Of a stretch of DNA of 64,000 nucleotides, positions 6,978 through 57,950 are shown one piece after another. Each line of letters starts with the position of its first letter. The stretch's first letter is position 1. The position numbers and the translations under genes are program-made. The notes below the pieces were generated by a model that was not told where the DNA came from, ran no database searches, and saw only the letters and a list, made by a program, of their open reading frames with translations. The DNA lies in assembly GCF_034932185.1 (NCBI RefSeq), contig NZ_JAYGHW010000066.1, positions 35,180 through 99,179 on the forward strand, in the 5' to 3' direction. The stretch comes from Spirulina sp. CCNP1310. Its GTDB lineage: Bacteria; Cyanobacteriota; Cyanobacteriia; Cyanobacteriales; Spirulinaceae.

Positions 6978-7008
6978 TGGCGTAGGGGCGAAAAATTTTT
7001 CGCCCTAA
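6978..7008. repeat. Dispersed palindromic repeat, copy a (TGGCGTAGGGGCGAAAAATTTTTCGCCC-TAA), slightly degenerate.
   Basis: It shares the core GGGGCGAAAAATTTTTCGCCCC with seven other loci in the window. It forms the left boundary of the AT-rich island. Confidence 0.8.
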
Positions 7009-7382
7009 CCTTCAGGTTTAAGGTTAAGCCTCAGGTTCAATCCCCAAGGCTCGCAGTTGTGCCGTCAGCAGTAGCAACCATGGCATCATTAGAGAACATC
7101 TGCTCACCATTCTAGCCTGTTATCTCCGGCCTGTCCCCACGCTTTCATCTGTGATGGGGCAAGCTTGCTAAAATATCCCAGGATTACAAAAAAGAGCTAC
7201 AATAAAATTATTGTTTTTTTGTATCAATACAAAAGTATTGCTATGGGAAGATTTTGGGCAGGAATAGTTTATCGAATTTACCTTTGGGTTTGTTGTATGA
7301 GACTTTCTTCTCTCAATGAGTTGTTAAACTCTTCCTCGCTTTTAGTTTTGTACCGTTAAAAAGAAAAGAGGTAAAAGCTTTT

Positions 7383-7811
7383 ATGCGTAATAAAGTTGTT
7401 GCTATCCTTCTCACATTTTTTCTGGGTTGGTTCGGAGTTCATCAGTTTTATCTGGGCCAGAATGTTCGTGCTTTTTTTTATCTTATCTTTTGCTGGACTT
7501 GGATTCCTGCTCTCCTTTCCATTTTTGACTTCGTTGGACTTTTGTTGATGTCGGAGGAAGATTTTGAGCGACGTTTCAACGATGGAAAACGTGGCAAAGC
7601 CGGACAAGCCGCACTGCCTAGCCGTAAACTTCAACAACGTCTCCTCAAAGTTTGCAAGGAATACCGAGGTGCAACTCTTAGCGATTGTGTCATTGAAACT
7701 GGAGCCGACTTGGAAGAAGTGAAGATGATCCTGGATCGCTTTGCTCGGCAAGGTCTTGTGAGCGTCGAAAACCGAATACACGACGGTGCTGTAATCTATA
7801 AAACCATATAA
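7383..7811 (+). CDS. TM2-domain membrane protein with a C-terminal soluble (winged-helix-like) domain.
   Basis: The N-terminus has two TM helices with the TM2/NINE-like motif FFLGWFGVHQFYLGQ. The C-terminal 80 aa are charged (LLKVCKEYRGATLSDCVIETGADLEEVKMILDRFARQGLV). The gene lies in a low-GC region. Confidence 0.6.
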   Translation: MRNKVVAILLTFFLGWFGVHQFYLGQNVRAFFYLIFCWTWIPALLSIFDFVGLLLMSEEDFERRFNDGKRGKAGQAALPSRKLQQRLLKVCKEYRGATLSDCVIETGADLEEVKMILDRFARQGLVSVENRIHDGAVIYKTI

Positions 7812-7855
7812 AAATTTGTTGCCAAGACATAAAGTGTCAAGAAATAGGCTATTAA

Positions 7856-7900
7856 ATACCCCTCTTATATCTAGATTGAGAGAAGAGGGGTATTTACATT
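7856..7900 (+). terminator. Intrinsic terminator-like hairpin downstream of the TM2 gene.
   Basis: ATACCCCTCTT-N16-AAGAGGGGTAT is a perfect 11-bp stem with an internal TCTAGA, followed by TTTACATTTCT. Confidence 0.5.
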
Positions 7901-7954
7901 TCTGCCTAAATTCAAAACAACTCTAAATGGTTCAGCGTAATGATTGCACAACTA

Positions 7955-7991
7955 GTTGTCACTTGACAACCAATGATTTTAGGTTTACATT
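7955..7991 (+). promoter_or_regulatory. Putative sigma70-type promoter (TTGACA-17-TACATT) overlapped by the inverted repeat GTTGTCA-N2-TGACAAC (candidate operator).
   Basis: A perfect -35 TTGACA sits at 7963-7968 and TACATT at 7986-7991. The AAGG RBS lies 6 nt before the ATG at 8009. The palindrome 7955-7970 overlaps the -35. Confidence 0.45.
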
Positions 7992-8008
7992 TAAAAGTAA
8001 AGGCTGAC

Positions 8009-8266
8009 ATGGGTAGACGATCTCATCCAAAACAAGAGGTTGAGGCTGCGCTAAAGTATGCTGAACAAAATGGCTGGCGCGTTGATGTGGGTGGATCACA
8101 CGCTTGGGGTAAAATCTACTGCCCCTATAACGATCAGGAATGCAGATGTGGCAACTTTTGTATATCCAGTGTTTGGAGTACTCCAAAAAATGCCGGAAAT
8201 CACGCGAGGCAGATTCGTCAAGTAGTCGATAACTGTATAAGATATAACCGCGAAGAGGAAAAATAA
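8009..8266 (+). CDS. HicA-like (YcfA fold) small protein with a Cys-rich insertion; putative toxin of a TA-like pair.
   Basis: KQEVEAALKYAEQNGWRVDVGGSHAWGKIYCP matches the HicA pattern (hydrophobic-x2-L-x3-G[FW]-x5-GSH-x5-P). The distal PKNAGNHARQIRQVV resembles the HicA C-terminus. There is a CPYNDQECRCGNFC insert. The ORF-track start at 7973 would lie inside the predicted promoter, so the ATG at 8009 is preferred. Confidence 0.45.
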   Translation: MGRRSHPKQEVEAALKYAEQNGWRVDVGGSHAWGKIYCPYNDQECRCGNFCISSVWSTPKNAGNHARQIRQVVDNCIRYNREEEK

Positions 8267-8269
8267 GCA

Positions 8270-8797
8270 ATGAAAGAGTATGATTTTACATTGAAATTTA
8301 GTATTGGGAATTTCCCAATTGACCCTGATAGCTATGTTGAGGCTTTATACACAGGTGGTTGTGATGATGCTTTGATTGGAGTTGGTAAAAAAGGATATCT
8401 TTCACTCAATTTTATTCGAGAAGCATCATCAGCCTATGACGCTATTTCTACTGCTATTGCTGATGTTAAAAATGTAATTCCATCTGCAAACTTGATTGAA
8501 GCAGCACCAGATTTTGTCGGATTGACAGATGTAGCCAAAATTATTGGCTGCACTCGACAAAATATCAGAAAGCTCATTGTTGAAAGTGAGCCAAGATCCT
8601 TACTTCCTATTTATGAAGGTACACCCTCAATTTGGCATTTAGCGGAAATCCTAGCTTGGTTGCGAGAATTCAAGACATATTCCATTGATGATTCATTAAT
8701 GGAGATTGCCAAAGCTAATATGGACATTAATATTGCGAAAAGCTGGCAGAAAGTAGCGCCAACTGCTCAAGAAAAAATTCAGCGTCTTGCTTTGTAA
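8270..8797 (+). CDS. N-domain + helix-turn-helix DNA-binding protein; putative antitoxin/regulator partner.
   Basis: It starts 3 nt after the upstream stop. The N-terminal ~90 aa contain GGCDDALIGVG. The central HTH is LTDVAKIIGCTRQNIRKLI (AlpA/MerR-like). Confidence 0.5.
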   Translation: MKEYDFTLKFSIGNFPIDPDSYVEALYTGGCDDALIGVGKKGYLSLNFIREASSAYDAISTAIADVKNVIPSANLIEAAPDFVGLTDVAKIIGCTRQNIRKLIVESEPRSLLPIYEGTPSIWHLAEILAWLREFKTYSIDDSLMEIAKANMDINIAKSWQKVAPTAQEKIQRLAL

Positions 8798-8822
8798 GAT
8801 GGAATCCAGTTGTATCCCTGAT

Positions 8823-8854
8823 TGGCGTGGGGGCGAAAAATTTTTCGCCCCTAC
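8823..8854. repeat. Dispersed palindromic repeat, copy b (TGGCGTGGGGGCGAAAAATTTTTCGCCCCTAC).
   Basis: Full-length copy. It forms the right boundary of the AT-rich island. Confidence 0.85.
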
Positions 8855-8890
8855 TGGGGATTTTGCTGATCTTTTGAGACGGGTTATTTT

Positions 8891-8995: not shown

Positions 8996-9319
8996 TTAGG
9001 AAGCTAAGGCGACTTCAACCATTTGTTGGAGTTCGCCACTTTGGTAAAGCTCGATCAGGATATCGGAACCGCCTAAAAATTCCCCGTTGAGATAAACTTG
9101 GGGGATGGTGGGCCAGTTGGAATATTCCTTGATGCCTTGGCGGACTTCGGGATCAGAGAGGACATCGAAGGTGGTGAAGGGTACACCGCAAATGTTGAGA
9201 ATTTGCACAACATTGTTAGAAAAACCGCATTGGGGCATTAACTTGGAACCCTTCATAAACACAACGATTTTATCTTGTTGTACGAGGTCGTCAATGCGTT
9301 TTTGGACTTCTGGAGTCAT
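8996..9319 (-). CDS. grxD: Monothiol glutaredoxin (Grx4/GrxD type, CGFS).
   Basis: The CGFS active site lies in ...[17 protein letters not shown]... The protein is 107 aa with a C-terminal [19 protein letters not shown]. Confidence 0.92.
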
Positions 9320-9714: not shown

Positions 9715-10794
9715 TTAATCCGCAAAACCCAGTTCCACCAATTGCTGGAAGGCTCGCTCGCCAAGGCCGTTGGTGGGATTTTGCGATCGCACGATCTGGA
9801 TCAACAAGGGAACCGAGAGTTCCGGCTGATTTTGGGCGCGGTGAACGAGGGCCAATTGATAGGTGGTTTGATCCCGCAGTTGAGCACTGTCAAGGGCTTT
9901 TTGTCGCTGATCTTGGGCAACTTCGCGATCAATGCCAGAAAAGGTTTCGGAAAGTTGCTGATGGAAATTAGAGAGTTGATTAAACACTTGCCGGGCTTGC
10001 TGAAACTTGTTCTGGGCTTGGTTGTAGTCCCCGGCATTGACCGCCGCTTCTGCTTCACGGATCAAGTTTTGGCCGCCTTCAAAGCTGAGTAATGTGGGGG
10101 TTGCTTCCGGGATAATTTGGGCAAAATCGCCAGTGGGTTGCACAAAACCAAACCGCACCAATTGTTCATGGGCTTGGCGACCGAGGGGGGTGGTGGGATT
10201 TTGCGATCGCACAATTTGGATCAGCAACGGAATGGATAAATCCGTCCGGCCTTGGGCATGGTGGGCTAAAGCCAGTTCATAGGTGGATTGATCCCGCAGT
10301 TGGGCGGTTTCGAGGGCCTGTTGCCGTTGCTGGGCAGCGCGGCGGCTGTTAATGCCCGCAAAACTGCCGGAGAGTTGTTGATAAAAATTGGAAAGTTGGT
10401 TAAAGACTTGGCGGGTAGCTTGGAGCTTTTCCACCGCTAGGTCATAGTTGCCTTGGGCGCTGGCGTTGCGCCCCGCTTCCAGTAATGCCATGCCGCCGGG
10501 CATACTTAAAACACTGCTGCTTTGTTGCAAAATCCGGGGATCTTCGACAGCAAAGGGATCTGGCTCAGGGTTCGATAATTCTTGGGCTTGAACCCCCCCA
10601 GGAAGTCCTAGGGTTAAAACCGTCAAACTGGCCAACATCAGGGGGTGGATAATCTGCTTGAATCTCATTGAAGCCCTCAGACCCATTCCTAAAAACAGTA
10701 AAATTGATTGCAATCGTTTCCTACGATACCCTGTTTCAGACATAATTCTTAAAAAAAAGTTCTGTACTGGTGATGATCGCTCCGCCATGGTCAC
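9715..10794 (-). CDS. Secreted hypothetical protein with an internal ~150-aa tandem duplication.
   Basis: It has a signal peptide (LASLTVLTLGLPGGVQA). Two repeats share RQVFNQLSNF(Y/H)QQLS...AQLRDQ(S/T)TY(E/Q)LAL...(I/V)PLLIQIVRSQNPT...LG...QL(V)(R/E)(F/L)GF. Confidence 0.6.
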   Translation of the reverse strand: MTMAERSSPVQNFFLRIMSETGYRRKRLQSILLFLGMGLRASMRFKQIIHPLMLASLTVLTLGLPGGVQAQELSNPEPDPFAVEDPRILQQSSSVLSMPGGMALLEAGRNASAQGNYDLAVEKLQATRQVFNQLSNFYQQLSGSFAGINSRRAAQQRQQALETAQLRDQSTYELALAHHAQGRTDLSIPLLIQIVRSQNPTTPLGRQAHEQLVRFGFVQPTGDFAQIIPEATPTLLSFEGGQNLIREAEAAVNAGDYNQAQNKFQQARQVFNQLSNFHQQLSETFSGIDREVAQDQRQKALDSAQLRDQTTYQLALVHRAQNQPELSVPLLIQIVRSQNPTNGLGERAFQQLVELGFAD

Positions 10795-10930
10795 GAATCC
10801 CGGAGAAGCAACCCGTTGAGGCGATCGCCGATTTTTTCCACTCCCCGTGATGGGTTGGCCCAGATCCCATCTGCCACAACCTTGGGGGATTGGGTATTCT
10901 GGAAAGGATCCGTGCTTGCTCGCCCCCGTT

Positions 10931-13900
10931 ATGGCCTACACCGTTAGCGAAATTCAAAGCTTTCTGACTGCTCAAACCCCCTTAGGGATGTTGCCACCAG
11001 GGGCGATCGCCGCTGTTTTAGGGCGGATGCGGCCCTTTCGCTATCGCATGGGTCAAACCCTGTTGGTACGAGACAAGATCCCCCATCAGGTGGTGATTTT
11101 GTATGAGGGACAGGTGCGGCTGATTGGCTATGATCCCACAACGAAAATGCCCCTAACGCTGCAACTGCTCCAACCGGGGGACATGATCGGCTGGGTGAGT
11201 TTGCTGCGGGGCATTCCTTGCGAAACGGCGATCGCCTCCACGGAAACCGTCGCCATTACCCTTGGGGCCGAGGAATTTTTCGCCGTCCTCCAGCGTTTCC
11301 CCGATGTGGCGGCTCAATTTCATCAAGGGACGGCGATCGCTGAAGTCTTCGACCTCCTCTCCCGTCAAACCCTCCCCAACCTCAAAGACAGTAATGCCCT
11401 CAAGGAATGGGTGCAAAATGCTGCCAACCATGCCCAAGTTTGTAGCCTGCCCCCCGGTCGTCACCTCCTCCAAGACGAACCCGCCCGCATCCTCCAATAC
11501 CCTAATCTCGTTTGGTTTGTCAGCGGTGGCGGCCAAGTCACCCACTTTAAACCCGGCTATCCCATCAGCCTCGACCCCCAACAACGGAGCCTAGAGGTGG
11601 TGGGGGAATATCCTGCCCGGCTAATCGGCATTCAAGCCGCCGACCTCCTCCCCGTTGCCATTGCGGACACTTTCGCCGATCCCGATACCGTCCAACTATC
11701 ACCAGAGCCAGCAGAAATTCCCTACGCCGCCGAATTGGAAACCGTTGACGCGCCCACCCCCCCCAGCGCCGCCCCGAAGCCCAACCGCCAAGATTATCCC
11801 CTCGTTAAGGGGCGATCGCAACTCGATGCAGCGGTGGCCTGTTTCCAGATGTTGAGCCAATATTTTCGGATGCCCTTCCGTCGGGATGTGATTGAGCGGG
11901 TGTTAGGGGATCAACTGCGGCGACAGGGGAGCTTATCCCTCTATAACTGTGGCTCGGTGGCGGAACTCATGGGATTAACGGCGCAATTGGTGAATATTCC
12001 CGCTTCTGCGTTAACGCGATTACAGGGGCCGGCCTTGGTGCAGTGGCAAGACCGGCTGGCGGTACTCTATGAAATTAGTGATCAGGAGTTGGTGATTGGT
12101 GCGCCGGAGGTGGGGATTCTACGGCGCAAGCCCAAGGATTTCCTTGAAGCCTGGGATGATGTGGGCCAGGTGGTGCTGTTGCAACCCTCGAAATATACCC
12201 CCCAGGAACGCTTTGGTCTCAGTTGGTTTTGGCCGGTGTTATGGAAATATAAGGGCGTGTTAACAGAAGTATTTATCGCTTCCTTCTTTGTGCAACTTTT
12301 TGCCCTCGCTAATCCCCTAATTATTCAAGTAATCATCGATAAGGTCATTGTCCAAAATAGTACGGAAACGCTGCAAGTTTTGGGGTTTTTCCTGCTAGGG
12401 GTGGCGATTTTTGAATTTATCCTCAGTACGGTACGCACCTATCTGTTTGTGGATACCACAAACCGCATTGATATGAGCTTGGGGTCAGAAATCATTGATC
12501 ACCTGCTGCGATTACCCCTGAGTTATTTTGACCGTCGCCCGGTGGGGGAACTGTCCAGCCGCATTAATGAGTTGGAAAATATCCGTACATTCTTAACCGG
12601 AACCGCCTTAACAGTGGTTTTAGATGCGGTTTTTTCGGTGATTTATATTGCCGTGATGTTCTTTTACAGTTGGCGGCTGTCACTGTTGGGGCTGGCCATT
12701 GTGCCAATTTTCATTATCACGACACTGATTTTTTCCCCCTTAATCCGCCATCAACTGCGGATCAAGGCGGAACGCAACGCTGAAACCCAATCTCATCTGG
12801 TGGAGGTGGTTTCGGGGATTCAAACGGTGAAGGCGCAAAATATTGAGTTGCGATCGCGCTGGCGGTGGCAAGAACATTACGCCCGCTACGTTTCCGCCGG
12901 GTTTAAAACCGTGCAGACTTCAACCCTAGCGAATTCTGCCAGTAATTTCCTCAATAAAATTTCTGGCCTGTTGGTGCTGTGGGGTGGGGCCTATTTGGTG
13001 TTACAGGGGGATCTGAGTTTAGGGCAGTTAATTGCCTTTCGGATCATTGCCAGCTATGTCACTAGTCCCCTATTACGGTTGGCGCAACTGTGGCAAAACT
13101 TCCAAGAGGTGGGGCTATCTTTGGAGCGGTTGGGGGATATTTTAGATAGTCCTCAGGAAGGGGAAGCGGATCAGGGGAATATCCCGATGCCATCGGTGGT
13201 GGGGGCGGTGAAATATGAAAATGTTTCTTTCCGGTTTAAACCCAATGGGCCGCTGCAATTGGTGAATGTTAACCTTGATATTCCGGCGGGGAGTTTTGTC
13301 GGGGTGGTGGGGAAAAGTGGGGCGGGCAAAAGTACGCTGACGAAATTGCTCGTGCGTTTATACGATTGGGAAACGGGGCGGATTTTGCTCGATGGTTACG
13401 ATGTGGCCAAGGTGGAGCTTTATTCCCTGCGGCGACAAATCGGGGTTGTACCCCAAGAGCCATTATTATTTGATGGCACGATTCAGGAAAATATCGCCCT
13501 CAATAACCCCGAAGCCTCTAGTGAGGAGATTATCGAGGCGGCAAGGGTGGCGGCGGCCCATGATTTTATTATGGAGTTGTCCAGTGGCTATAACACGCGG
13601 GTGGGGGAGCGGGGGGCGAGTTTGTCGGGGGGACAACGGCAACGGATTGCGATCGCCCGCACCGTGTTGCAACGCCCTGCCTTTCTGATTTTGGATGAAG
13701 CCACCAGCGCCCTCGATTACCCCACGGAGCAGCAGGTTTGTAGTAATTTAGCCCAAGCCTTTCGCGATCGCACCGTCATTTTCATCACCCACCGTTTAGG
13801 AACAGTTCAGGGGGCGGATCAAATTGTGATGATGGACAGCGGCGCGGTGGTAGAAGTGGGAACCCACGCGGAACTGATCGCCCTCGAAGGTCGCTACTTC

Positions 13901-13936
13901 GCCCTCTACCGCCAACAGGATGCCCGCCAAGCCTGA
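10931..13936 (+). CDS. ABC exporter with an N-terminal cyclic-nucleotide-binding domain and a C39-like (catalytic Cys absent) peptidase-like domain; type I secretion/bacteriocin-exporter family.
   Basis: cNMP domain (GQTLLVRDK...GEEFF). The C39-like region has QLDAAVACFQML in place of the canonical Q-x4-DCG. Six TM helices follow, then Walker A GKSGAGKST, signature LSGGQRQRIAIAR and Walker B LILDEATSALD. The ORF-track start at 10847 is possible, but the ATG at 10931 (MAYTVSEIQ) leaves a more plausible divergent intergenic region. Confidence 0.85.
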   Translation: MAYTVSEIQSFLTAQTPLGMLPPGAIAAVLGRMRPFRYRMGQTLLVRDKIPHQVVILYEGQVRLIGYDPTTKMPLTLQLLQPGDMIGWVSLLRGIPCETAIASTETVAITLGAEEFFAVLQRFPDVAAQFHQGTAIAEVFDLLSRQTLPNLKDSNALKEWVQNAANHAQVCSLPPGRHLLQDEPARILQYPNLVWFVSGGGQVTHFKPGYPISLDPQQRSLEVVGEYPARLIGIQAADLLPVAIADTFADPDTVQLSPEPAEIPYAAELETVDAPTPPSAAPKPNRQDYPLVKGRSQLDAAVACFQMLSQYFRMPFRRDVIERVLGDQLRRQGSLSLYNCGSVAELMGLTAQLVNIPASALTRLQGPALVQWQDRLAVLYEISDQELVIGAPEVGILRRKPKDFLEAWDDVGQVVLLQPSKYTPQERFGLSWFWPVLWKYKGVLTEVFIASFFVQLFALANPLIIQVIIDKVIVQNSTETLQVLGFFLLGVAIFEFILSTVRTYLFVDTTNRIDMSLGSEIIDHLLRLPLSYFDRRPVGELSSRINELENIRTFLTGTALTVVLDAVFSVIYIAVMFFYSWRLSLLGLAIVPIFIITTLIFSPLIRHQLRIKAERNAETQSHLVEVVSGIQTVKAQNIELRSRWRWQEHYARYVSAGFKTVQTSTLANSASNFLNKISGLLVLWGGAYLVLQGDLSLGQLIAFRIIASYVTSPLLRLAQLWQNFQEVGLSLERLGDILDSPQEGEADQGNIPMPSVVGAVKYENVSFRFKPNGPLQLVNVNLDIPAGSFVGVVGKSGAGKSTLTKLLVRLYDWETGRILLDGYDVAKVELYSLRRQIGVVPQEPLLFDGTIQENIALNNPEASSEEIIEAARVAAAHDFIMELSSGYNTRVGERGASLSGGQRQRIAIARTVLQRPAFLILDEATSALDYPTEQQVCSNLAQAFRDRTVIFITHRLGTVQGADQIVMMDSGAVVEVGTHAELIALEGRYFALYRQQDARQA

Positions 13937-13937
13937 T

Positions 13938-13960
13938 GGTGAAAATTTTTCGCCCCTATT
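13938..13960. repeat. Dispersed palindromic repeat, copy c (partial: GGTGAAAATTTTTCGCCCCTATT).
   Basis: The 3' arm is intact and the 5' arm is truncated. It begins at the stop codon of the ABC exporter. Confidence 0.7.
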
Positions 13961-13990: not shown

Positions 13991-14092
13991 GACTTGGCAG
14001 AGCCAAGTCACGAGGGATTCCCATTCCCTATTGCCCGTTCCCTGTTCCCTGTTCCCCATTCCCCGTTCCCCATTCCCCATCTTCCCCACCCC
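13991..14092. repeat. Hairpin (GACTTGGC-AGA-GCCAAGTC) followed by an array of ~9 heptamers (consensus CCC[A/G]TTC), STRR-like.
   Basis: CCCATTC CCTATTG CCCGTTC CCTGTTC CCTGTTC CCCATTC CCCGTTC CCCATTC CCCATCTTCCCC. The ORF-track ORFs 13796..14089 and 14028..14309 are artifacts of this repeat. Confidence 0.8.
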
Positions 14093-14119
14093 ATGCTATA
14101 GTAGAAAAGCTTAATTTTT

Positions 14120-14193
14120 CGGGATGTGGCGCAGCTTGGTAGCGCACTTCGTTCGGGACGAAGGGGCCGCTGGTTCGAATCCAGTCATCCCGA
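14120..14193 (+). tRNA. tRNA-Pro (anticodon CGG).
   Basis: Acceptor CGGGATG/CATCCCG with discriminator A. D arm GCGCAGCTTGGTAGCGC. Anticodon stem CTTCG/CGAAG with loop TTCGGGA. T arm GCTGGTTCGAATCCAGT. The 3' CCA is not encoded. Confidence 0.85.
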
Positions 14194-14227
14194 TTTGCCA
14201 AGAGCGAATCTAGTTGTATAGTTGATC

Positions 14228-14259
14228 TGCCTGGGGGCGAAAGATTTTTCGCCCCTACA
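14228..14259. repeat. Dispersed palindromic repeat, copy d (TGCCTGGGGGCGAAAGATTTTTCGCCCCTACA).
   Basis: Core conserved with one substitution. It shares the upstream flank TTGATCTGC with copy g. Confidence 0.85.
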
Positions 14260-14438
14260 TCATTTATCCCCCTGGCCAACGGGTGGAAACGTGCGATCGC
14301 CTCACCCACCTCGATGGGGAAACCCTTTTACCCGGTTTAGTCCTCCCCCTGATCTCGTTGTGGGCCTAGGGGCAACCATTCCAGCCAGAAAAGAGAATAT
14401 GTTAACTTGGCCGAAACGGCCGGAATTTCTCTTTCTCC

Positions 14439-14932: not shown

Positions 14933-15871
14933 ATGCCTGAATTTTTTCTACTGATTTTGTTAGCCTTAGGCGGCTCTACCGCCATCGGCTCAGTGAAAAT
15001 TATCAATGAAAAACATGAAGCCTTGGTGGAAAGCTTGGGGAGCTATAAGAAAAAGCTCACCCCTGGTTTAAACTTAATGGTTCCCTTCATTGACAAGGTG
15101 GTCTATCAAGAAACCACCCGCGAAAAAGTCCTCGACATTGCGCCCCAGTCCTGTATTACCAAAGATAACGTCGCCATCAGTGCCGATGCCGTCGTCTATT
15201 GGAAAATTGTCGATATGGAGAAGGCCTATTATCGGGTGGAAAATCTCCAAAAGGCGATCACCAATCTGGTCTTAACCCAAATTCGCTCCGAAATGGGCAA
15301 GCTCGAACTGGATCAAACCTTTACCGCCCGCAGTGAAATCAATGAAATGCTGTTGCGGGAATTGGATATCGCCACCGATCCCTGGGGCGTGAAGGTGTTG
15401 CGCGTTGAGCTTCGCGATATCACCCCCTCGAAAGCCGTGCAGGATTCGATGGAATTACAAATGACCGCTGAACGGCGGAAACGGGCGGCCATTCTTACCT
15501 CGGAAGGGGAGCGGGATGCGGCGGTTAACTCTGCCCAAGGGAAAGCTGAGGCTAGCATTTTGAATGCAGAAGCGGACAAAAAATCAGCGGTGTTAAGGGC
15601 AGAGGCGGAGGCTCAAAAAGAAGTCCTCAAAGCCCAAGCAACGGCGCGGGCCATGGATATTTTAATGGATAAAATGCGCAGCGATCCCCACGCGAAGGAA
15701 GCCCTGCAATTTATCCTCGCCCAAGACTATTTGACCATGGGTAAAGTGGTGGGCAGCAGTGAAAGCAGCAAGATCATGTTTATGGATCCGGCGAATATGT
15801 TTTCTACCTTGGAAGGGATGCGCTCGGTGTTAGGGGATCTGCCCCAGGATGTTAAGGGGAATGGGTATTAA
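14933..15871 (+). CDS. SPFH/band-7 (stomatin/prohibitin-like) protein.
   Basis: N-terminal TM anchor, then the SPFH core ([45 protein letters not shown]...), then an Ala/Glu-rich coiled-coil tail. Confidence 0.85.
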
Positions 15872-15923
15872 TCGGGGGCATTGAACAACGATCCTCAAAT
15901 GCCCTGAATTTGCAGCCCTGATC

Positions 15924-15954
15924 GGCCCAGGGGCGAAACATTTTTCGCCCCTAC
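15924..15954. repeat. Dispersed palindromic repeat, copy e (GGCCCAGGGGCGAAACATTTTTCGCCCCTACCC).
   Basis: It lies 3' of the SPFH gene stop. Confidence 0.85.
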
Positions 15955-16021
15955 CCCTAGCCAAGGGGGATGTTAAATCTAGTCTAAACATCGGTTAGGA
16001 TGGAGGCGTATTCGCGCTTTT

Positions 16022-18154: not shown

Positions 18155-18328
18155 TCTTTTGGGAAGAAAAGAGGATAGAGAAGAGAGGAGAGAGGAAAGT
18201 TGAATCTTCTCCCTCACTTCTCACTCCTCACTTCTCACTTCTCCCTCACTTCTCACTCCTCACTCCTCACTCCTCACTCCTCACTCCTCACTCCTCACTC
18301 CTCACTCCTCACTCCTCACTCCTCACTC
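18155..18328. repeat. Purine-rich arm (GAAGAAAAGAGGATAGAGAAGAGAGGAGAGAGGAAAG) plus a CT-rich inverted partner, followed by ~11 perfect tandem heptamers (CACTCCT) abutting the sdhB stop codon.
   Basis: Read directly from the sequence. The AG-rich and CT-rich halves are mutually complementary, giving a long imperfect hairpin. The perfect heptamer run spans ~18251-18327. Confidence 0.85.
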
Positions 18329-18329
18329 C

Positions 18330-21103: not shown

Positions 21104-21218
21104 AGTGTAGTTTGAGAAAGAACAGGAATGGACGTGATCCCCCCCTGCCCCCCTTAAAAAAGGGGGGGAGAGGGTCGGCTTAAAAAGGGGGGATGGTTGG
21201 TAGGGGATCGAGGGGCAA

Positions 21219-40625: not shown

Positions 40626-40658
40626 CTGCGTAGGGGCGGAAAATTTTGCGCCACTACA
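40626..40658. repeat. Dispersed palindromic repeat, copy g (TGCGTAGGGGCGGAAAATTTTGCGCCACTACA, diverged).
   Basis: It shares the TTGATCTGC left flank with copy d. Confidence 0.7.
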
Positions 40659-52224: not shown

Positions 52225-55200
52225 ATGCCGGAAGCACTACATCTGTTATTAATCGAAGACTCAGATGATGATGCCCAGTTATTACTGCGGGTCTTGCAGC
52301 GCAATGGGTTTAGGCTGACCTGGGAACGGGTACAAACCGCTGAAGCCCTTCGGAATGCCCTCTCCCAACAAGCTTGGGATGTGATTATCTCCGATTATAA
52401 CCTTCCCGGTTTTGATGCCCCCAGCGCCTTAGCCATCCTCAAGGAAAGCCAACAGGATATTCCTTTTTTAGTCGTATCGGGAACCATTGGCGAAAAGTTA
52501 GCCGTTGAAATGATGAAAGCCGGAGCCACCGACTACATTATGAAAGGCAACTTAGCTCGGCTTCCGGAAGCGGTGCGTCGGGAAGTGCGGGAAGCCCAAA
52601 TCCGCCATGAGCGTCGCCAGGCAGACCAAGCCCTGCGGGAGAGCCAAGAGCGTAGTCGGGCGATGTTGATGGCAATTCCTGATTTAATGTTTCGGGTGGG
52701 GGCCGACGGGGTTTATCGTGGTTTTATCACCGCTGATCGTTGCGGAGATATCGTGCCGACCAACATTGATTCCACTGGGAAATTAATGATTGATATGCTG
52801 CCGCCGGATTTAGCGGAGCGCCAACTTTACTACCTTCAGCAAGCCTTAGCCACGGGGGAATTGCAAATCTATGAGCAAACCCTTTGGATCAACAATTGCC
52901 GCCAAGATGAAGAAGTCCGGGTGGTGAAAAGTGGGGAGGATGAGGTGTTATTTATGGTGCGGGATATTACCCAACGCCAAGCAGCCCTGCGGGAACGCAA
53001 GCAAGCCGAGCGCCAACTTTATCACCTCAACCAAGAATTAGAAAACAAGGTTGCCCAACGCACCGCCGAACTTCAAAAACGGGAAGCCGAATTACAAAAG
53101 CTCTCCGAACGCCTTACCCTCGCTTTAAAATCAGCATCTATGGGGTGTTGGACGTGGCAATTAGAAGATAATACGCTGATCTGGGATGAACGGATGCGAG
53201 AATTTTACGATCTCCCCCCAGAGCATCAGATTACCTATGAGCAATGGCAGAAATATGTCCATCCGGAGGATCTACAATACTTGGTTGAGGGCCTGGGGAG
53301 CATCCTCAATAGTGGGCAAGAATACAATGCTGAATTTCGGATTATCCTACCCAATGGCACAATGCGCCACCTCAAAACCTATGGGGTATTAGTCCGGGAT
53401 GAAGCCGGTCATCCTCTGGCGATGACCGGGGTGAATATAGATATTAGCGCACAGCAGGCGGCCCTGCGACAACGGGAAGATGCGGAAAAACAACTACGGG
53501 CCTCTCAACAGTTTTTACAAACGGTACTGGATACTTTTCCTCTCGCGGTTTTTTGGAAAGATTGTGCTCTTGAATATGTGGGCTGTAATTACCAATTTGC
53601 TCAGAGTTTAGGGTTAGATGATCCTCAAGATGTGGTAGGTAAAAATGACTTTGATTTATATCATGAGCGAGAAGCCCTGACTTATCGGGCCATTGATCGT
53701 CAAGTAATTGAGTCGAACTTACCGATGATTGGCATGATGGACAATACAATTTTTCCTGATCAAAAATTGCACTGGCTAGAGATCAATAAGTTGCCGCTGC
53801 GGGATTTATTTGGCAATGTTGTCGGTGTTGTTGGCACTTTCCAGGATATTACAGATCGCAAAGAGGCTGAACATGCTCTTCAAGAAAGTGAAGAAAAATT
53901 CCGGCAGTTGGCTCAGGTGGTGGATGCGGTGTTTTGGATTATTGAAGTGGATCGCACGGAACGAGTCTATGTCAGCCCCGCCTATGCCCGGATTTGGGGA
54001 CGAGAATTAGATGAAATTTATATTTCTCCCGATATTTGGTTGGAGGCGATTCATCCGGAGGATCGCGAGGGTGTGATCGCTGCGCTTCCCCAACAAATCG
54101 AAGGAAAATTTGATCAGGAATACCGGATTGTGCGCCTCAATGGGGAAATTCGCTGGATTCGCGATCGCGCCTTCCCCATCCCCAATGCCCAAGGTCAGAT
54201 CTATCGGGTGGCGGGGATTGCCGAAGACATCACCGATCGCAAAATCGCCCAAGCCCAACTCCAAGCCACTAACGAGGAACTGATCCGCGCCACCCGCCTC
54301 AAGGATGAGTTTCTCGCGAATATGAGCCATGAACTGCGCACCCCCCTCAATGCCATTTTAGGCATGACCGAAGGACTCCAAGAGGAAATTTTCGGCCCCT
54401 TGAATGACCCACAAATCAAAGCCTTACAAACTGTGGAGCGCAGTGCTTTTCACTTGTTGGAATTAATTAATGATATTTTAGATGTCGCTAAAATTGAATC
54501 CGGTCAAATGGAGTTAGATTGCTCCCCCACAGCCATTGCGCCCCTCTGTCAATCGAGTGTCACATTTATCAAACAGCAAGCCTTGAAAAAACGGATTCAA
54601 CTTTCCGTCAATCTTCCTTTGAATTTACCTGATATCATGCTCGATGAACGGCGCATCCGTCAAGTGCTGATTAATCTACTCAATAATGCTGTGAAATTTA
54701 CCCATGAAGGGGGACAGATCACGCTAGAGGTAAACTCCCTCCCTCCTGCTGAATCAGAGGAGCAAACCCACTATCTTCGGTTTTCCGTGATTGATACCGG
54801 CATTGGTATTAGCCCCAAACACATGAAAAATTTGTTTCAACCCTTTATGCAAATTGATAGCGCCCTGAATCGCCAATATCAAGGGACAGGGTTAGGGTTA
54901 GCCTTGACGAAACAAATCATTGAACTTCACGGTGGGCGGGTGAGTTTAACCAGTGAAGAAGGGGTGGGCAGTTGCTTTATGATTGATTTACCCTATCAGG
55001 AAACCCCGGTTTTTTCAAAGCAGCATACGAGCCTTAATGTCAACGGTCATCACGATTTATTTGATCATCCGATTGCGGATGGGCCTTTGCTGTTATTGGC
55101 GGAAGATAATGAAGCGAATATCAGCACGATTTGCAGTTATTTAAAAGCGAAAGGCTATCGGATTGAGGTGGCTAAAAATGGTCAGGAAGCGATTGATCGG

Positions 55201-55479
55201 GCAATCCGATTCGCACCAGATTTGATCTTAATGGATATTCAAATGCCGGGCATGGATGGTTTAGAAGCGATGAAACAAATTCGCCGGTTGTCGGGGTTAA
55301 CCACAACGCCGATTATTGCGTTAACCGCCTTAGCGATGGAGAGCGATCGCGATCGCTGTCTTGCCGCCGGAGCGAACCAATACCTCAGCAAACCCGTCCG
55401 CCTCAAAGAACTCGCCCAAATGATCCTCAACTTACTAGGAATCTGCGAGCAAGCCCCCCATTCTCGTGGTCGGGGCTGA
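52225..55479 (+). CDS. Hybrid sensor kinase (N-terminal REC, 4-5 PAS/PAC, HisKA, HATPase, C-terminal REC).
   Basis: It starts 3 nt after the REC gene's stop. The C-terminal ~410 aa are ~80% identical to the C-terminus of the 1962-aa kinase, with the same H-box MSHELRTPLNAILGMTEGLQE. Confidence 0.9.
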   Translation: MPEALHLLLIEDSDDDAQLLLRVLQRNGFRLTWERVQTAEALRNALSQQAWDVIISDYNLPGFDAPSALAILKESQQDIPFLVVSGTIGEKLAVEMMKAGATDYIMKGNLARLPEAVRREVREAQIRHERRQADQALRESQERSRAMLMAIPDLMFRVGADGVYRGFITADRCGDIVPTNIDSTGKLMIDMLPPDLAERQLYYLQQALATGELQIYEQTLWINNCRQDEEVRVVKSGEDEVLFMVRDITQRQAALRERKQAERQLYHLNQELENKVAQRTAELQKREAELQKLSERLTLALKSASMGCWTWQLEDNTLIWDERMREFYDLPPEHQITYEQWQKYVHPEDLQYLVEGLGSILNSGQEYNAEFRIILPNGTMRHLKTYGVLVRDEAGHPLAMTGVNIDISAQQAALRQREDAEKQLRASQQFLQTVLDTFPLAVFWKDCALEYVGCNYQFAQSLGLDDPQDVVGKNDFDLYHEREALTYRAIDRQVIESNLPMIGMMDNTIFPDQKLHWLEINKLPLRDLFGNVVGVVGTFQDITDRKEAEHALQESEEKFRQLAQVVDAVFWIIEVDRTERVYVSPAYARIWGRELDEIYISPDIWLEAIHPEDREGVIAALPQQIEGKFDQEYRIVRLNGEIRWIRDRAFPIPNAQGQIYRVAGIAEDITDRKIAQAQLQATNEELIRATRLKDEFLANMSHELRTPLNAILGMTEGLQEEIFGPLNDPQIKALQTVERSAFHLLELINDILDVAKIESGQMELDCSPTAIAPLCQSSVTFIKQQALKKRIQLSVNLPLNLPDIMLDERRIRQVLINLLNNAVKFTHEGGQITLEVNSLPPAESEEQTHYLRFSVIDTGIGISPKHMKNLFQPFMQIDSALNRQYQGTGLGLALTKQIIELHGGRVSLTSEEGVGSCFMIDLPYQETPVFSKQHTSLNVNGHHDLFDHPIADGPLLLLAEDNEANISTICSYLKAKGYRIEVAKNGQEAIDRAIRFAPDLILMDIQMPGMDGLEAMKQIRRLSGLTTTPIIALTALAMESDRDRCLAAGANQYLSKPVRLKELAQMILNLLGICEQAPHSRGRG

Positions 55480-55646
55480 ATGGCAAAAGCAGCTAGTTCT
55501 CGAAGTCAAGCTCTAGAGACAGACCCCTTGCGTTTAGGGATTGCAGAACTTAATCCTTTAGCTCATGTTATCTAACGATCGGGAAGCCGCCATTGCCCAA
55601 AATTCACAGTACAATCGGGAACCAAAGGAAACCCGCTCAAACCAAA

Positions 55647-57308
55647 ATGATTCATTTTCACCGCACCTTGCCCCGCTTTTGGCGAGTTTTTGCCCAATTT
55701 TTCACCCTCTTCTCCCTCTGTGCCGCCCTGATTGTCGGCTGTAACCCCCAAACCAACCAAACCACCCCCAGCTCCACTGTTACCCCTTCTAGTACACCGA
55801 GCGATCGCATTATCTACGGAACCACCGTCCGCCCCCGTACCCTTGACCCCGCCGACAGTTATGAAATGGCCGGCATTGATATGATTTATAACCTGGGGGA
55901 CACGCTCTACACCTACACCCCCGGCACCACCGACCTCGTTCCCCACCTTGCCACCGCGATGCCTGCCATCAGCGAGGATGGCCTCACCTATATCATTCCC
56001 CTGCGGGAAGGCGTAGAATTCCACGATGGCACGCCTTTTAATGCCGAAGCGATGAAATTTTCCATTGATCGCTTTATGAATAACGGTGGTAAACCGGCCT
56101 TTTTACTCAACGATATTGTCCTCGAAGCCCAAGCCACTGGGGAATACGAACTTACCATCACCCTCCAACAACCCTTTGCGGGCTTTACCGCCCTCCTCGC
56201 CTTTGCCGGGATTTGCCCCGTTTCCCCCGCTGCCTACGAAATTGGCGATGGTAGCTTTAACCCCAATCAGTTTGTGGGAACTGGCCCCTACACCCTCACC
56301 GAATTTAATAGCGATACCCTCCACCTAGAAGCTAATCCTAACTATTGGGGTGATAAACCCAAAAATAAAGGCGTAGATGTGCAAATCTACACCGATAACG
56401 CCGCTAACCTGTTCAATTCCTTCACTACCGGCGCGGTGGATCTCGCCTATCAAGCCCTCGATCCCGAACAAATCACCAATTTAATCAGCGGTGCAGAAAA
56501 GGGGGATTGGCAGATGCTCGAAGCCCCCGGTACGGCGGTTAACTATATGGTGTTGAATCAGAACCAGGCCCCCCTGGATCAATTGCCGGTGCGTCAGGCG
56601 ATCGCCCATCTTGTCGATCGCGCTCTGATTACCGAGCGGGTTTTCCAAGGCCAAGCCGAACCTGTCTATAGCCTCATTCCCACCGCCCTCAGCGACTACT
56701 ACGAGCCAGCCCTGCAAAATAACTACGGCGAACCCGACGGTGCAAAAGCCAAGGAAATCCTCAATGAAGCGGGATTTTCTGCCACAAACCCCGCCGTGAT
56801 TCCCATTTGGTTTCCCAGTGCCTCCACACCGCGATCACTCGTTGCCCAAACCCTCCAAGCCTTAGCGGAGCAAGAACTGGAAGGGGCGCTCACCTTTGAA
56901 CCTAACACCGTTGATGGTGCATCATTTTTTAAAAATATTCGCGAAGGGGTTTATCCCGCTGCCTTAGTCAATTGGTATCCGGATTTTCTCGATCCCGATA
57001 ACTACCTTCACCCCTTCCTCAGTTGTAGCCAAGGCAGTGAAGTCGGCGGTTGTTCCCAGGGGGCTGCCCAAAACCAAGGCTCGTTTTACTACAGCGAAGC
57101 CATGAATGAACTGATCGAAGCCCAACGCAAGGAAACCAACCCCGAAGCCCGCCAAGGTATCATCCGTGAAATTCAACAAAAACTCGCTGATGATCTCCCC
57201 TATATCCCCCTCTGGCAAACGAAAGAATATCTCTTTGCCCGCAACGAAGTCAAAGGGTTAGCGATGAACCCCAGCCAAACTATCCCCTTCTGGCTCTTGG
57301 GTAAATAG
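55647..57308 (+). CDS. ABC transporter substrate-binding protein, family 5 (oligopeptide/nickel/dipeptide type).
   Basis: Lipoprotein-like signal (LIVGC) and the family-5 fold pattern (...YEMAGIDMIYNLGDTLY...NPNYWGDKPK...). The ORF-track start at 55593 is an N-extension. Confidence 0.75.
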   Translation: MIHFHRTLPRFWRVFAQFFTLFSLCAALIVGCNPQTNQTTPSSTVTPSSTPSDRIIYGTTVRPRTLDPADSYEMAGIDMIYNLGDTLYTYTPGTTDLVPHLATAMPAISEDGLTYIIPLREGVEFHDGTPFNAEAMKFSIDRFMNNGGKPAFLLNDIVLEAQATGEYELTITLQQPFAGFTALLAFAGICPVSPAAYEIGDGSFNPNQFVGTGPYTLTEFNSDTLHLEANPNYWGDKPKNKGVDVQIYTDNAANLFNSFTTGAVDLAYQALDPEQITNLISGAEKGDWQMLEAPGTAVNYMVLNQNQAPLDQLPVRQAIAHLVDRALITERVFQGQAEPVYSLIPTALSDYYEPALQNNYGEPDGAKAKEILNEAGFSATNPAVIPIWFPSASTPRSLVAQTLQALAEQELEGALTFEPNTVDGASFFKNIREGVYPAALVNWYPDFLDPDNYLHPFLSCSQGSEVGGCSQGAAQNQGSFYYSEAMNELIEAQRKETNPEARQGIIREIQQKLADDLPYIPLWQTKEYLFARNEVKGLAMNPSQTIPFWLLGK

Positions 57309-57371
57309 CCCTCACAGCCCCTCTCCCCAGGTGGGTAAGGGGCTTCCGATTCTTCTCACCCGCCATCCCCC

Positions 57372-57911
57372 ATGCAAGCCCTTAAACTTCAAGGCCTCTT
57401 CGCCCCCCGCTTTTGGCAAAACCTGCTCCCCCTCCCCGCTCAACCCGCATTACAACGGGGCCAAAAGTTGCCGGACTTTCTCCTACCCGATGCCACCCAT
57501 CGCACCACCGTCAAGCTTTCTAGTTTTATCGGCCAAAGTCCGGTCTTATTAGCCTTTACGCGCATCTTCACGGAAAACCACTATTGCCCCCTCTGTTATC
57601 CCCATATTGTGGAACTGAATCAACGGTATGAAGAATTTACAGGGCAGGGGATCGGGGTGTTGATGATTGCCAGCACCGATAGCCGTCAAAGTCAGCGAGT
57701 CGTGGCGGATTTGGGGTTGAAAATGCCGCTGTTGAGTAATCCCAGTTGCGATGTATTTCGGCTCTACGGCACAGGGCAAGCCCTGGGTGCGCCACTCCCA
57801 GCCCAGTTACTTATGGATCGGGAAGGGCGACTCGCTTATCAGCACCGCTTTTCATTCCTAGAACCCAACGCCTCCGTCGATAAGTTATTGCAAATCTGCC
57901 AAGGGAAATAA
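57372..57911 (+). CDS. Redoxin/AhpC-TSA-family thiol-disulfide oxidoreductase-like protein.
   Basis: Thioredoxin-fold pattern with a CPLC motif (VLLAFTRIFTENHYCPLCYPHIVEL). Confidence 0.6.
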   Translation: MQALKLQGLFAPRFWQNLLPLPAQPALQRGQKLPDFLLPDATHRTTVKLSSFIGQSPVLLAFTRIFTENHYCPLCYPHIVELNQRYEEFTGQGIGVLMIASTDSRQSQRVVADLGLKMPLLSNPSCDVFRLYGTGQALGAPLPAQLLMDREGRLAYQHRFSFLEPNASVDKLLQICQGK

Positions 57912-57920
57912 CGACTAACC

Positions 57921-57950
57921 TGTAGGGACGAAAAATTTTTCGCCCCTACC
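57921..57950. repeat. Dispersed palindromic repeat, copy h (TGTAGGGACGAAAAATTTTTCGCCCCTACC).
   Basis: It lies 10 bp after the redoxin stop. Confidence 0.8.

Follow-up and report, generated by a model that had tools for sequence, protein, structure and literature searches.

Subclass 2.4 of the TnpA_REP enzymes (HuH/Y1 single-stranded DNA transposases, which correspond to Group 4 of the RAYTs in Bertels et al. 2017) was described by Quentin et al. 2018 (PMC6006769) as carrying the protein motifs NH[IFV]H, WQ and YIxNNP, as accompanied by double-foot REPs, and as having REP insertions in frame within the transposase gene, a feature that the same authors do not report for subclass 2.2, that of E. 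coli. The family is common in Cyanobacteria and scattered over phyla (Quentin et al. 2018, PMC6006769; Bertels et al. 2017). Table S1 of Quentin et al. 2018 (PMC6006769) enters the exact 28-mer GTAGGGGCGAAAAATTTTTCGCCCCTAC for BAM00060.1, with a hairpin of about -20 kcal/mol, and Bertels et al. 2017 found that the 16-mers flanking Group 4 RAYTs occur ~14 times genome-wide.

We analysed a 64-kb stretch of DNA from Spirulina sp. CCNP1310 (the window), in which a sequence-only reading had described a family of eight dispersed palindromic repeats. The family is confirmed, and we consider it very probable that its members are double-foot REPs of the type associated with subclass 2.4 TnpA_REP. A scan for the core GGGGCGAAAAATTTTTCGCCCC at up to three mismatches found it at 6985, 8830, 14234, 15930, 40633 and 57925, and no occurrence at the same threshold in 100 shuffles. 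An nhmmer profile built from these six copies and run against the window recovered all six, together with an interrupted copy (35131-35158) and a half copy (13942-13958), and no further significant copy in the 64 kb; the list of eight (six full, one with a 24-nt insert, one half copy) is therefore complete, and it agrees with the number and coordinates first proposed. A look-alike at 11265, within the ABC-exporter ORF, scored E = 0.3-0.7 and was set aside as a chance match. The copies, named below by the position in brackets, are as follows.

6974-7011, + strand: full copy (6985), nhmmer E = 9e-12; core 6985-7006 with 1 mismatch, 5′ foot GTAG, degenerate 3′ foot (TAAC); flanked by divergent genes for a glycosyltransferase (5794-6927, - strand) and a TM2-domain protein (7383-7811, + strand).
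8798-8855, + strand: full copy (8830) at 8818-8855 with an 18-nt module, E = 8e-13; perfect 22-nt core 8830-8851, foot GTGG; the module GATGGAATCCAGTTGTAT (8798-8815) begins immediately past the TAA stop of an ORF at 8270-8797; between convergent genes, with a glutaredoxin gene at 8996-9319 (- strand).
13933-13959, + strand: half copy (13938), E = 6e-4 to 1.4e-3; extension CTGATGG kept, 5′ arm deleted, 3′ arm TGAAAATTTTTCGCCCCTAT; the extension contains the TGA (13934-13936) that ends the ABC exporter gene (10847-13936).
14202-14262, + strand: full copy (14234) at 14222-14260 with the 18-nt module, E = 1.3e-12; loop variant GATT, foot CTGG, ATCA tail; the module (14202-14219) begins 8 nt past tRNA-Pro (14119-14194).
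15918-15955, + strand: full copy (15930), E = 1.7e-11; loop variant CATT, degenerate 5′ foot (CCAG); begins 47 nt past the stop of an SPFH/Band_7 gene (14933-15871).
35131-35197, + strand: interrupted copy (35143), E = 3e-6; extension, GTGG foot, 5′ arm and loop at 35131-35158, 24-nt insert GTGCCTCCGGCAGGCTTACGCCAA at 35159-35182, 3′ arm CGCCCCTAT at 35183-35191, then an ATCAAC tail; its neighbours are a Ser/Thr kinase gene (33483-35015, - strand), whose start faces it, and a LysR gene (35243-36250, - strand), whose stop does.
40602-40661, + strand: degenerate full copy (40633) at 40621-40659 with the 18-nt module (40602-40619), E = 6e-12; 3 core mismatches, 2 of which break stem pairs, and an ATCA tail; with a PP2C gene (39665-40387) before it and a response-regulator/histidine-kinase gene (41035-42201) after it.
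57921-57952, - strand: full copy (57925) in reverse orientation, E = 1.7e-10; core with 1 mismatch, feet GTAG/CTAC; begins ~10 nt past the TAA stop of an AhpC/TSA gene (57372-57911, + strand).

Just 5′ of the first of these, at ~6952-6973, stands GTTGGCGTATAATTTTCGCG, which by eye could be the remnant of another half copy.

The repeat unit is a 28-nt palindrome, GTAGGGGCGAAAAATTTTTCGCCCCTAC, in which a GT[AG]G 5′ foot and its complement as 3′ foot enclose a hairpin with a predicted stem of 9-12 bp and a loop of 4 nt, the full 28 nt giving the 12-bp stem. The core had been described as a perfect 22-bp palindrome; this holds for copy 8830, but the other copies carry one to three mismatches, an insertion or a deletion, and palindromy reaches beyond the core to 28 nt (GTAG...CTAC). 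The 5′ foot reads GTAG at 6982, 40630 and 57922 and GTGG at 8827 and 35140, and is degenerate at 14231 (CTGG) and 15927 (CCAG); both feet (5′ GT[AG]G with 3′ C[TC]AC) are present at 8827-8854, 40630-40657 and 57922-57949. One loop position varies among the copies as A, G or C. In the Spirulina copies the 28-nt REP is lengthened on its 5′ side by YTGATNGGC, an addition particular to this lineage; TGAT...ATCA forms the outer ends of three copies, and copies 14234 and 40633 share TTGATCTGC, the common left flank already noticed in the sequence-only reading. The unit thus spans 28-40 nt, or ~60 nt where the 18-nt module that precedes three copies is counted. RNA folding, which had been proposed as a check, gave -14 to -28.5 kcal/mol for 56-81-nt segments holding the copies, and the 28-mer folded as DNA gave -13 kcal/mol (z = -6.8).

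All eight copies lie outside ORFs of at least 100 aa, as had been claimed, in space that makes up 18% of the window, and seven of them lie past the 3′ end of a gene or tRNA. The repeats had been said usually to follow directly on stop codons: five start within ~50 nt of a gene or tRNA 3′ end (8830, 13938, 14234, 15930 and 57925), copy 35143 starts ~50-75 nt beyond the LysR stop, copy 40633 lies ~215-230 nt beyond the PP2C stop, and copy 6985 alone occupies a divergent 5′ region. We also find a copy on either side of tRNA-Pro, and two copies bounding a low-GC stretch (6950-8850, GC 0.37-0.43), both as originally observed. No inverted REP doublets occur in the window: all copies are singletons, and the nearest two (13938 and 14234) are ~290 nt apart in the same orientation with the tRNA gene between them. 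In the nearest relative the ABC exporter is 82% identical, but the locus is not syntenic, and no presence/absence polymorphism of the copies was obtained.

The sequence-only reading had taken the family to be genome-specific, which comparison with other bacteria and Table S1 of Quentin et al. 2018 (PMC6006769) contradict: the same 28-mer was found at no fewer than 127 sites in at least 113 loci, from at least ~80 species of many phyla. Among the 127 cross-phylum sites listed, GTA stands on the left in 80, TAC on the right in 90, and both feet are present in 70. Since base frequencies around these sites fall to background beyond 3 nt on either side, the conserved unit is exactly 28 nt. In the relatives, half-REPs are duplicated in tandem within RAYT ORFs as well as between genes. 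Clustering of neighbouring proteins at the 28-mer loci revealed no shared neighbour other than a RAYT, and no recurrent DDE transposase adjoining the copies.

A Y1 HuH transposase gene is flanked by the 28-mer in 8 of the at least 113 loci, these from other phyla, as well as in Spirulina major; the 28-mer also lies in frame within that gene, where it encodes VGAKNFSPL. The Y1 HuH proteins of the eight loci carry the motifs NHIHG, WQRNYWEH and YIxNNP, and NHIH, WQRNY and YI..NP are invariant in an alignment of six partners from related loci. VGAKNFSPL is found at a single position in six loci, GAKNFSP in 82 of the best 120 homologues, and the embedded variants in RAYT ORFs (VGAKNFSPL, VGAKDFSPL and VGAKHFSPL) match the A, G and C loop variants of the window. 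The best family match of the partner protein is NCBIfam REP_Tyr_transpos at 54-56 bits, under the trusted cutoff of 80, and in the PDB it matches nothing but E. coli TnpA_REP (4ER8, E = 1.6e-5), over the motif regions alone. Over 7,900 homologues were retrieved at E ≤ 1e-20, some of them named "REP element-mobilizing transposase RayT" by their sources. The partners are 55-75% identical to one another, with an essentially identical DNA element. In Spirulina major (locus L117) the RAYT gene has REPs upstream (9721 and 9941), within the ORF (10283) and downstream (10579), which is the layout of a REPtron, and one of these REPs bears the 5′ extension TTGGCGT, as the window copies do. The 64-kb window contains no RAYT gene, and none of the best 120 homologues of the Spirulina major RAYT bears a Spirulina sp. 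CCNP1310 label.

The earlier interpretation is partly supported: the repeats are REP-like, as proposed, in their GT[AG]G foot, hairpin, several copies and extragenic position mostly downstream of genes. At the level of the window, we advocate for their annotation as REPs; they should not be taken for a new class of element, nor for terminators or sites of regulation.

The alternative to which we give most room, although we hold it to be the less probable course of events, is that these are true REPs but relics, with no active RAYT left in the source genome, persisting as immobile, decaying, neutral or mildly useful hairpins. A perfect core survives in one copy of eight, one copy has lost its 5′ arm, another has taken up a 24-nt insertion and a third carries two pair-breaking changes, and this history would fit the RAYT searches of the window and of the best 120 homologues. 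Yet eight copies in 64 kb is dense against the ~14 genome-wide flanking 16-mers of Group 4 (Bertels et al. 2017), and the congener Spirulina major retains an intact REPtron. It is unlikely that the hairpins are primarily terminators or 3′-end RNA stabilisers selected by the host, their likeness to a RAYT substrate being secondary, even though seven of eight follow a gene or tRNA 3′ end, fold stably as RNA and, as G+C-rich hairpins after stop codons, resemble intrinsic (Rho-independent) terminators. A loose terminator scan flagged no copies other than 14232 and the half copy; over the scanned region it gave 15 terminator-like sites, against 17 in shuffles. Seven of eight copies have no T-run behind the stem, the A/T run lying in the loop and not in the tail, and copy 57925 has a separate canonical bidirectional terminator hairpin beside it (57964-57981, before the end of an OprB porin gene at 58020-59738, - strand); because of this missing U-tract and neighbouring terminator, the copies are not classical intrinsic terminators, and the terminator module once suggested finds no support in their anatomy. 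Copy 6985, in its divergent 5′ region, also sits poorly with such a role, and selection for termination would leave unexplained an identical GTAG-footed 28-mer in at least ~80 species and in RAYT ORFs.

A perfect 22-28-bp palindrome also has the classic shape of a dimer site, but we regard it as highly improbable that the palindrome serves a host dimeric DNA-binding protein (a regulator or nucleoid protein) as operator or binding site and marks a regulon: the copies are found mostly behind unrelated genes, not at promoters, and the sequence is scattered in unrelated phyla by unrelated genes, RAYT being the sole shared neighbouring protein found. Least credible of all is descent from a DDE-type insertion sequence as a MITE mobilised in trans via terminal inverted repeats, a kinship that the sequence-only reading had raised. 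The copies are dispersed and intergenic with an internal inverted repeat, and the TGAT...ATCA ends of three of them recall such an element, but the unit measures merely 28-40 nt (a MITE about 70-300 bp), flanks read by eye show no direct target-site duplication at any copy, neighbour clustering found no recurrent DDE transposase by the copies, and the recurring partner is a Y1 HuH enzyme. A recombination or insertion hotspot stays a proposal, with which the insertion at 35159-35182 and the relatives' tandem half-REP duplications are in loose accord.

For double-foot REPs of subclass 2.4, a mechanism can be proposed by extension from other TnpA_REP subclasses. The 28-mer, when exposed in single-stranded DNA such as that of a replication fork, would fold into the 12-bp hairpin; the RAYT would bind the hairpin and its GTAG foot, its catalytic tyrosine would cut 5′ of the element, and the strand would be rejoined elsewhere, copies persisting only where tolerated, mostly just downstream of genes. 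Cleavage and strand-transfer biochemistry has been published for subclass 2.2 and 2.5-type enzymes and not for 2.4, for which we found no published biochemistry in the studies consulted, and the 28-mer with its RAYT offers a tractable enzyme/substrate pair, for which the Spirulina major protein (P0196) and the 28-mer are suitable. At the 3′ end of a transcribed mRNA, a copy would form a stable hairpin that could slow 3′ exonucleases, by analogy with the REPs of E. coli.

Because the relatives carry the REP around the RAYT gene as well as in frame within it, we infer that gene and substrate travel together in horizontal transfer, which would explain an identical 28-mer in many phyla. More speculatively, and with some reserve, we suggest that the 28-mer is an ultra-conserved cross-phylum recognition module that persists through the in-frame VGAKNFSPL master copy in the RAYT gene, each horizontal transfer delivering the substrate with the gene and being able to seed a fresh REP population. 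Such a reading is consistent with the divergence of the partners set against a near-identical DNA element, and with the tandem half-REP duplications in RAYT ORFs and intergenic DNA. As a corollary, DNA enclosed by a like-oriented pair of REPs could be mobilised by them, and the low-GC island between 6985 and 8830 may be such a case. Since seven of the eight window copies are imperfect, the local REP population may be decaying rather than active. The near-identity of the 28-mer across at least ~80 species, despite partner identities of only 55-75%, recommends it as a convenient marker of RAYT activity in subclass 2.4.

Set beside other short repeats, the family is distinct from HIP1, as had been stated: its sequence differs from the octamer GCGATCGC, which is abundant elsewhere in the window. 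It shares with the GTAG-tagged REP super-family (cyanobacterial GTAG-12, -15 and -16; Di Nocera et al. 2013, PMC3733652) the GTAG tag, the stem-loop and a location mostly between co-directional or convergent genes, downstream of coding regions; the 28-mer is absent from the supplementary text of that study, whose consensuses are given as a figure. The subterminal hairpins of IS200/IS605 are likewise single-stranded hairpins served by Y1 HuH chemistry, with a 5′ tetranucleotide guiding cleavage, but they form the ends of autonomous insertion sequences with their own tnpA (and tnpB), whereas the window hairpins are dispersed alone. Pseudomonas REPINs (RAYT Groups 2 and 3) are also short palindromic repeats tied to a single-copy RAYT; they differ in being inverted doublets, reported as species-specific and with vertically inherited RAYTs, whereas the window copies are singletons and the 28-mer crosses phyla. 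The E. coli REP/BIME system (TnpA_REP subclass 2.2, 4ER8) offers extragenic GTAG-footed hairpins, a HuH/Y1 enzyme that binds and cleaves the folded single strand, and a REPtron gene flanked by REPs. E. coli REPs, however, have one foot only and a bulge that makes the palindrome imperfect, and they usually stand in inverted pairs, and their enzyme is only distantly related to the partner protein, as the 4ER8 match indicates. Compared with the double-foot REPs that Quentin et al. 2018 (PMC6006769) describe for subclass 2.4, the window copies add the 5′ extension and, in three cases, the 18-nt module, have no RAYT within the 64 kb, and are denser than the modest flanking-16-mer counts of Group 4 would suggest. 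In the 28-nt sequence itself, in the 5′ GT[AG]G and 3′ C[TC]AC feet and in the NH[IFV]H, WQ and YIxNNP motifs of the relatives' partner protein the two are the same, and the repeats of Spirulina sp. CCNP1310 are an ordinary, fresh instance of an already known kind of element.

The repeat studied here is a 28-nt hairpin palindrome with a GT[AG]G foot at its 5′ end and the complement at its 3′ end, referred to below as a REP. With at most three mismatches allowed, the 22-nt core GGGGCGAAAAATTTTTCGCCCC matched the window six times and 100 shuffles of it not once. A repeat finder picked up one more copy, at 35140, and at 11262 a look-alike. An nhmmer profile built from the six window copies recovered all of them (E = 1e-10 to 1e-13), together with one interrupted copy and one half copy, and nothing further in the window. 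Because the profile yields only these, the list of eight copies in the sequence-only reading is correct and complete. The 11265 site lies inside the ABC-exporter ORF (E = 0.3-0.7) and was dismissed as chance.

REP copies and GATGGAATCCAGTTGTAT modules in the window
6985, plus strand: full copy
8798-8815: GATGGAATCCAGTTGTAT module upstream of a REP copy
8830, plus strand: full copy
13942, plus strand: half copy (E about 1e-3)
14202-14219: GATGGAATCCAGTTGTAT module upstream of a REP copy
14234, plus strand: full copy
15930, plus strand: full copy
35131, plus strand: interrupted copy (E = 3e-6)
40602-40619: GATGGAATCCAGTTGTAT module upstream of a REP copy
40633, plus strand: full copy
57925, minus strand: full copy

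Orientation is set by an asymmetric 5′ extension, and the window consensus reads YTGATNGGC-GT[AG]G-GGGCGAAAAATTTTTCGCCC-CTAC, with ATCA directly after it in three copies. The 18-nt GATGGAATCCAGTTGTAT module precedes the copies at 8830, 14234 and 40633, was not found elsewhere in the window, and could be captured flanking sequence that travels with a REP. As all but one of the eight copies are imperfect, the local population may be old or inactive.

All eight copies fall outside every ORF of at least 100 aa, a space that makes up 18% of the window, and seven lie past the 3′ end of a gene or tRNA, the exception being the copy at 6985 in a divergent 5′ region. The neighbours are ordinary chromosomal genes (glycosyltransferase, TM2 protein, glutaredoxin, C39-peptidase ABC exporter, tRNA-Pro, NfeD and SPFH proteins, Ser/Thr kinase, LysR regulator, PP2C phosphatase, hybrid kinase, AhpC and OprB porin). 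An NCBI protein of Spirulina sp. CCNP1310 matches the ABC exporter with 100% identity, placing the window in that strain. The exporter's TGA stop (13934-13936) is part of CTGATGG, the 5′ extension kept by the half copy at 13938, and the protein ends in ...QQDARQA* compared with ...QQQGARTLS* in an 82% identical relative. No empty orthologous site was found: in the nearest exporter relatives, at 82% and 72% identity, the exporter is the one gene in common, and these loci show neither synteny nor a REP. Same-orientation REPs at 6985 and 8830 do flank the AT-rich island, as had been noticed (6950-8850, GC 0.37-0.43 vs about 0.52-0.55 nearby), which holds a TM2-domain gene and a 97-aa/175-aa gene pair (7973-8797). 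The two genes are found together, as a unit, in 18 metagenome loci (GC 0.35-0.59), only one of which (L133) has the REP family, with copies not immediately flanking the pair; a REP-bounded cassette thus finds no support outside the window. Heptanucleotide tandem repeats (CCCATTC, CCTCACT, ACTTCCC) occur at 14020-14080, 18206-18329 and 35196-35247, with a REP copy no more than about 100 nt away from two of the three, and similar arrays adjoin REPs in L133 and in another locus, L042. Elsewhere in the window, two large sensor-kinase genes (49043-50167 and 54270-55397) are paralogous over about 1.1 kb at 76-82% identity.

The family had been taken for genome-specific, a view that does not survive comparison across genomes. 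A scan with GGGGCGAAANATTTTTCGCCCC, one genome per species, gave at least 113 loci, which by our count derive from about 80 species-level genomes in Desulfobacterota, Binatia, Bacteroidota, Chloroflexota, Planctomycetota, Omnitrophota, Latescibacterota, Acidobacteriota, Myxococcota, Chlorobium, Beta- and Gammaproteobacteria, and, among cyanobacteria, Spirulina, Phormidium and Geitlerinema. Several genomes are represented more than once, and tandem arrays occur at some of the loci. Of the 127 copies among the matches listed, GTA adjoins 80 on the left and TAC adjoins 90 on the right; because base frequencies and pairing drop to background beyond ±3 nt, the conserved cross-phylum unit is exactly GTAGGGGCGAAA[A/G]ATTTTTCGCCCCTAC. 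Left GCA and right TGC occur in different copies, so one foot is simply degenerate and compensatory change was rejected. Plasmids and phages were likewise considered as vectors, and with only five distant plasmid hits and 12 IMG/VR stretches no clear vector emerges.

Clustering of ORFs over 113 loci among the matches listed brought out one recurrent protein outside generic families, present in eight loci (L034, L073, L086, L091 (twice), L098, L105, L107 and L109), where by a rough estimate chance would place less than one such gene in 113 stretches of up to 8 kb. It is about 180-240 aa long, carries the motifs NHIHG, WQRNYWEH and YIxNNP, and has additional REP copies just outside its gene. Of the family models, NCBIfam REP_Tyr_transpos fits it best (54-56 bits, under the cutoff of 80), Pfam Y1_Tnp matches weakly, and the sole solved-structure match is E. 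coli TnpA_REP (4ER8, E = 1.6e-5). At E ≤ 1e-20 its homologues number over 7,900, and some sources call them "REP element-mobilizing transposase RayT"; we refer to the protein as RAYT. In-frame 28-mers inside RAYT ORFs encode the peptide VGAKNFSPL, and the embedded VGAKDFSPL and VGAKHFSPL are the counterparts of window copies with G and C, respectively, at the variable loop position; VGANNYSPL corresponds to the palindrome GTAGGGGCGAATAATTATTCGCCCCTAC, in which both arms are changed and symmetry is kept.

Half-REPs are often tandemly duplicated, as in (GGAGGGCGAAAGATT)x3 followed by a full copy (L133 1148-1210 and 5100-5170), and VGAKxx-VGAKxx runs occur inside RAYT ORFs (homologues P0122, P0150, P0200 and others). 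In the window, the half copy at 13938 and a possible half-copy remnant at about 6952 may have a similar origin. Two subclass 2.4 RAYT homologues, P0179 and P0132, lie inside type I restriction-modification operons (L150 7169-13668; L151 897-5886) ordered HsdS - RAYT - HsdR, where stop and start codons overlap from one gene to the next. In L150 the gene ahead of HsdS is an identified HsdM; in L151 an unannotated ORF lies upstream of HsdS, its HsdM identity presumed only, and canonical REP copies sit inside both the L150 hsdM ORF (8501) and the L151 upstream ORF (644). In L086 a long ORF downstream of RAYT is a possible HsdR, judged by eye from its N-terminus.

Within the genus, Spirulina major encodes a RAYT (P0196) amid REPs.

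RAYT gene and REPs of S. major, locus L117
9721: REP upstream of the gene
9941: REP upstream of the gene
10001-10534: RAYT gene P0196
10283: REP inside the RAYT ORF
10579: REP downstream of the gene

The 20-kb locus has no REPs besides these four, and the arrangement is that of a REPtron. TTGGCGT stands before the foot of the copy at 9721, as in the window copies, and GATTGGCGTA stands before one of four REP copies in L133, a metagenome relative. On these grounds the 5′ extension is a Spirulina-lineage feature; as an exact pattern it is absent from the 119 loci searched. A RAYT was sought in the window itself by tblastn and by running a profile against every six-frame ORF, and only REP-encoded peptides matched. 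None of the best 120 matches to the S. major RAYT is labelled CCNP1310; many of these are nameless, and thousands rank below them.

As single-stranded DNA the 28-mer consensus is predicted to form a stem of 12 bp capped by a loop of 4 nt (-13 kcal/mol, z = -6.8). Its variable central base (A/G/C in the window) takes the first loop position, and so has no effect on pairing. RNA folding, proposed earlier as a check, gave predicted hairpins of -14 to -28.5 kcal/mol for REP segments of 56-81 nt. Such hairpins past gene ends could suggest transcription terminators, as the sequence-only reading had proposed, but seven of the eight lack a following T-run and the U-tract test fails; a loose terminator scan flags only the 14232 copy and the half copy, terminator-like sites number 15 in the scanned region vs 17 in shuffles, and a separate canonical bidirectional terminator (57964-57981) lies beyond the copy at 57925. 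Termination also leaves the cross-phylum identity of the 28-mer unexplained. A palindrome might also be an operator, which does not fit copies that lie downstream of genes and have unrelated neighbours. Of the earlier "REP/MITE-like" label, the MITE half does not hold, since the unit has the wrong length and target-site duplications are apparently missing, and the REP half is borne out by hairpin anatomy, extragenic placement and the match to published REP descriptions.

A second small-palindrome family, CCCCC(C)TTAA(A/C)AAGGGGG, occupies 21140-21190 and 37190-37430, arranged in part as tandem units of 35 nt and 42 nt that have GGATCCCCCC/GGGGGGATC as flanks; some of its members are followed by T-runs and flagged terminator-like. 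Rfam at the gathering threshold finds only three tRNAs in the window. ARAGORN calls a tRNA with an undetermined anticodon ("tg") at 30769-30843, abutting tRNA-Asn (Rfam tRNA, 54.6 bits), and the GATGGAATCCAGTTGTAT module is similar to the stretch of the neighbouring tRNA-Pro that covers its T-arm and acceptor 3′ end (GAATCCAGTCATCCCGA, 14176-14194).

Taken together, anatomy, extragenic placement, cross-phylum identity, association with and embedding in RAYT genes elsewhere (including in a congener) and the literature match indicate that the eight repeats are very probably double-foot REPs of a subclass 2.4 RAYT system. A RAYT would spread copies in Spirulina sp. CCNP1310 through single-strand cleavage and ligation, the copy embedded in the RAYT gene would account for co-transfer of gene and substrate, and transcribed copies may act as 3′ hairpins.

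Subclass 2.4 of TnpA_REP, equivalent to Bertels' Group 4, was described by Quentin et al. 2018 (PMC6006769) with the protein motifs NH[IFV]H, WQ and YIxNNP, "double foot" REPs (5′ GT[AG]G, 3′ C[TC]AC) and a spread centred on Cyanobacteria and Bacteroidetes and scattered over many phyla; their Table S1 gives exactly GTAGGGGCGAAAAATTTTTCGCCCCTAC for the gene BAM00060.1, in that one genome only. Bertels et al. 2017 found Group 4 in 61 species but 17 classes, commonly in Cyanobacteria, Chlorobia and Caldilineae, and Di Nocera et al. 2013 (PMC3733652) reported GTAG-tagged cyanobacterial REPs mostly downstream of genes and occasionally intragenic. Enzymes of E. coli, S. maltophilia and Marinomonas, which are not of subclass 2.4, cleave REPs that have folded as single strands and carry out strand transfer on them, and GTAG takes part in selecting the cleavage site. 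Earlier papers already cover the REP class and its partner enzyme, the insertions inside ORFs, and this very 28-mer; the window adds a new host, a 5′ extension specific to the lineage and a local density that is fairly high. Among the matches listed, one 28-mer is almost unchanged in about 80 species, against a mutual identity of only 55-75% for the partner proteins, and this sharing across species is a modest extension of known facts. The window differs from REPINs, which are inverted doublets, in having no such doublets, and its 28-mer matches the published description of subclass 2.4 REPs, including the exact Table S1 sequence.
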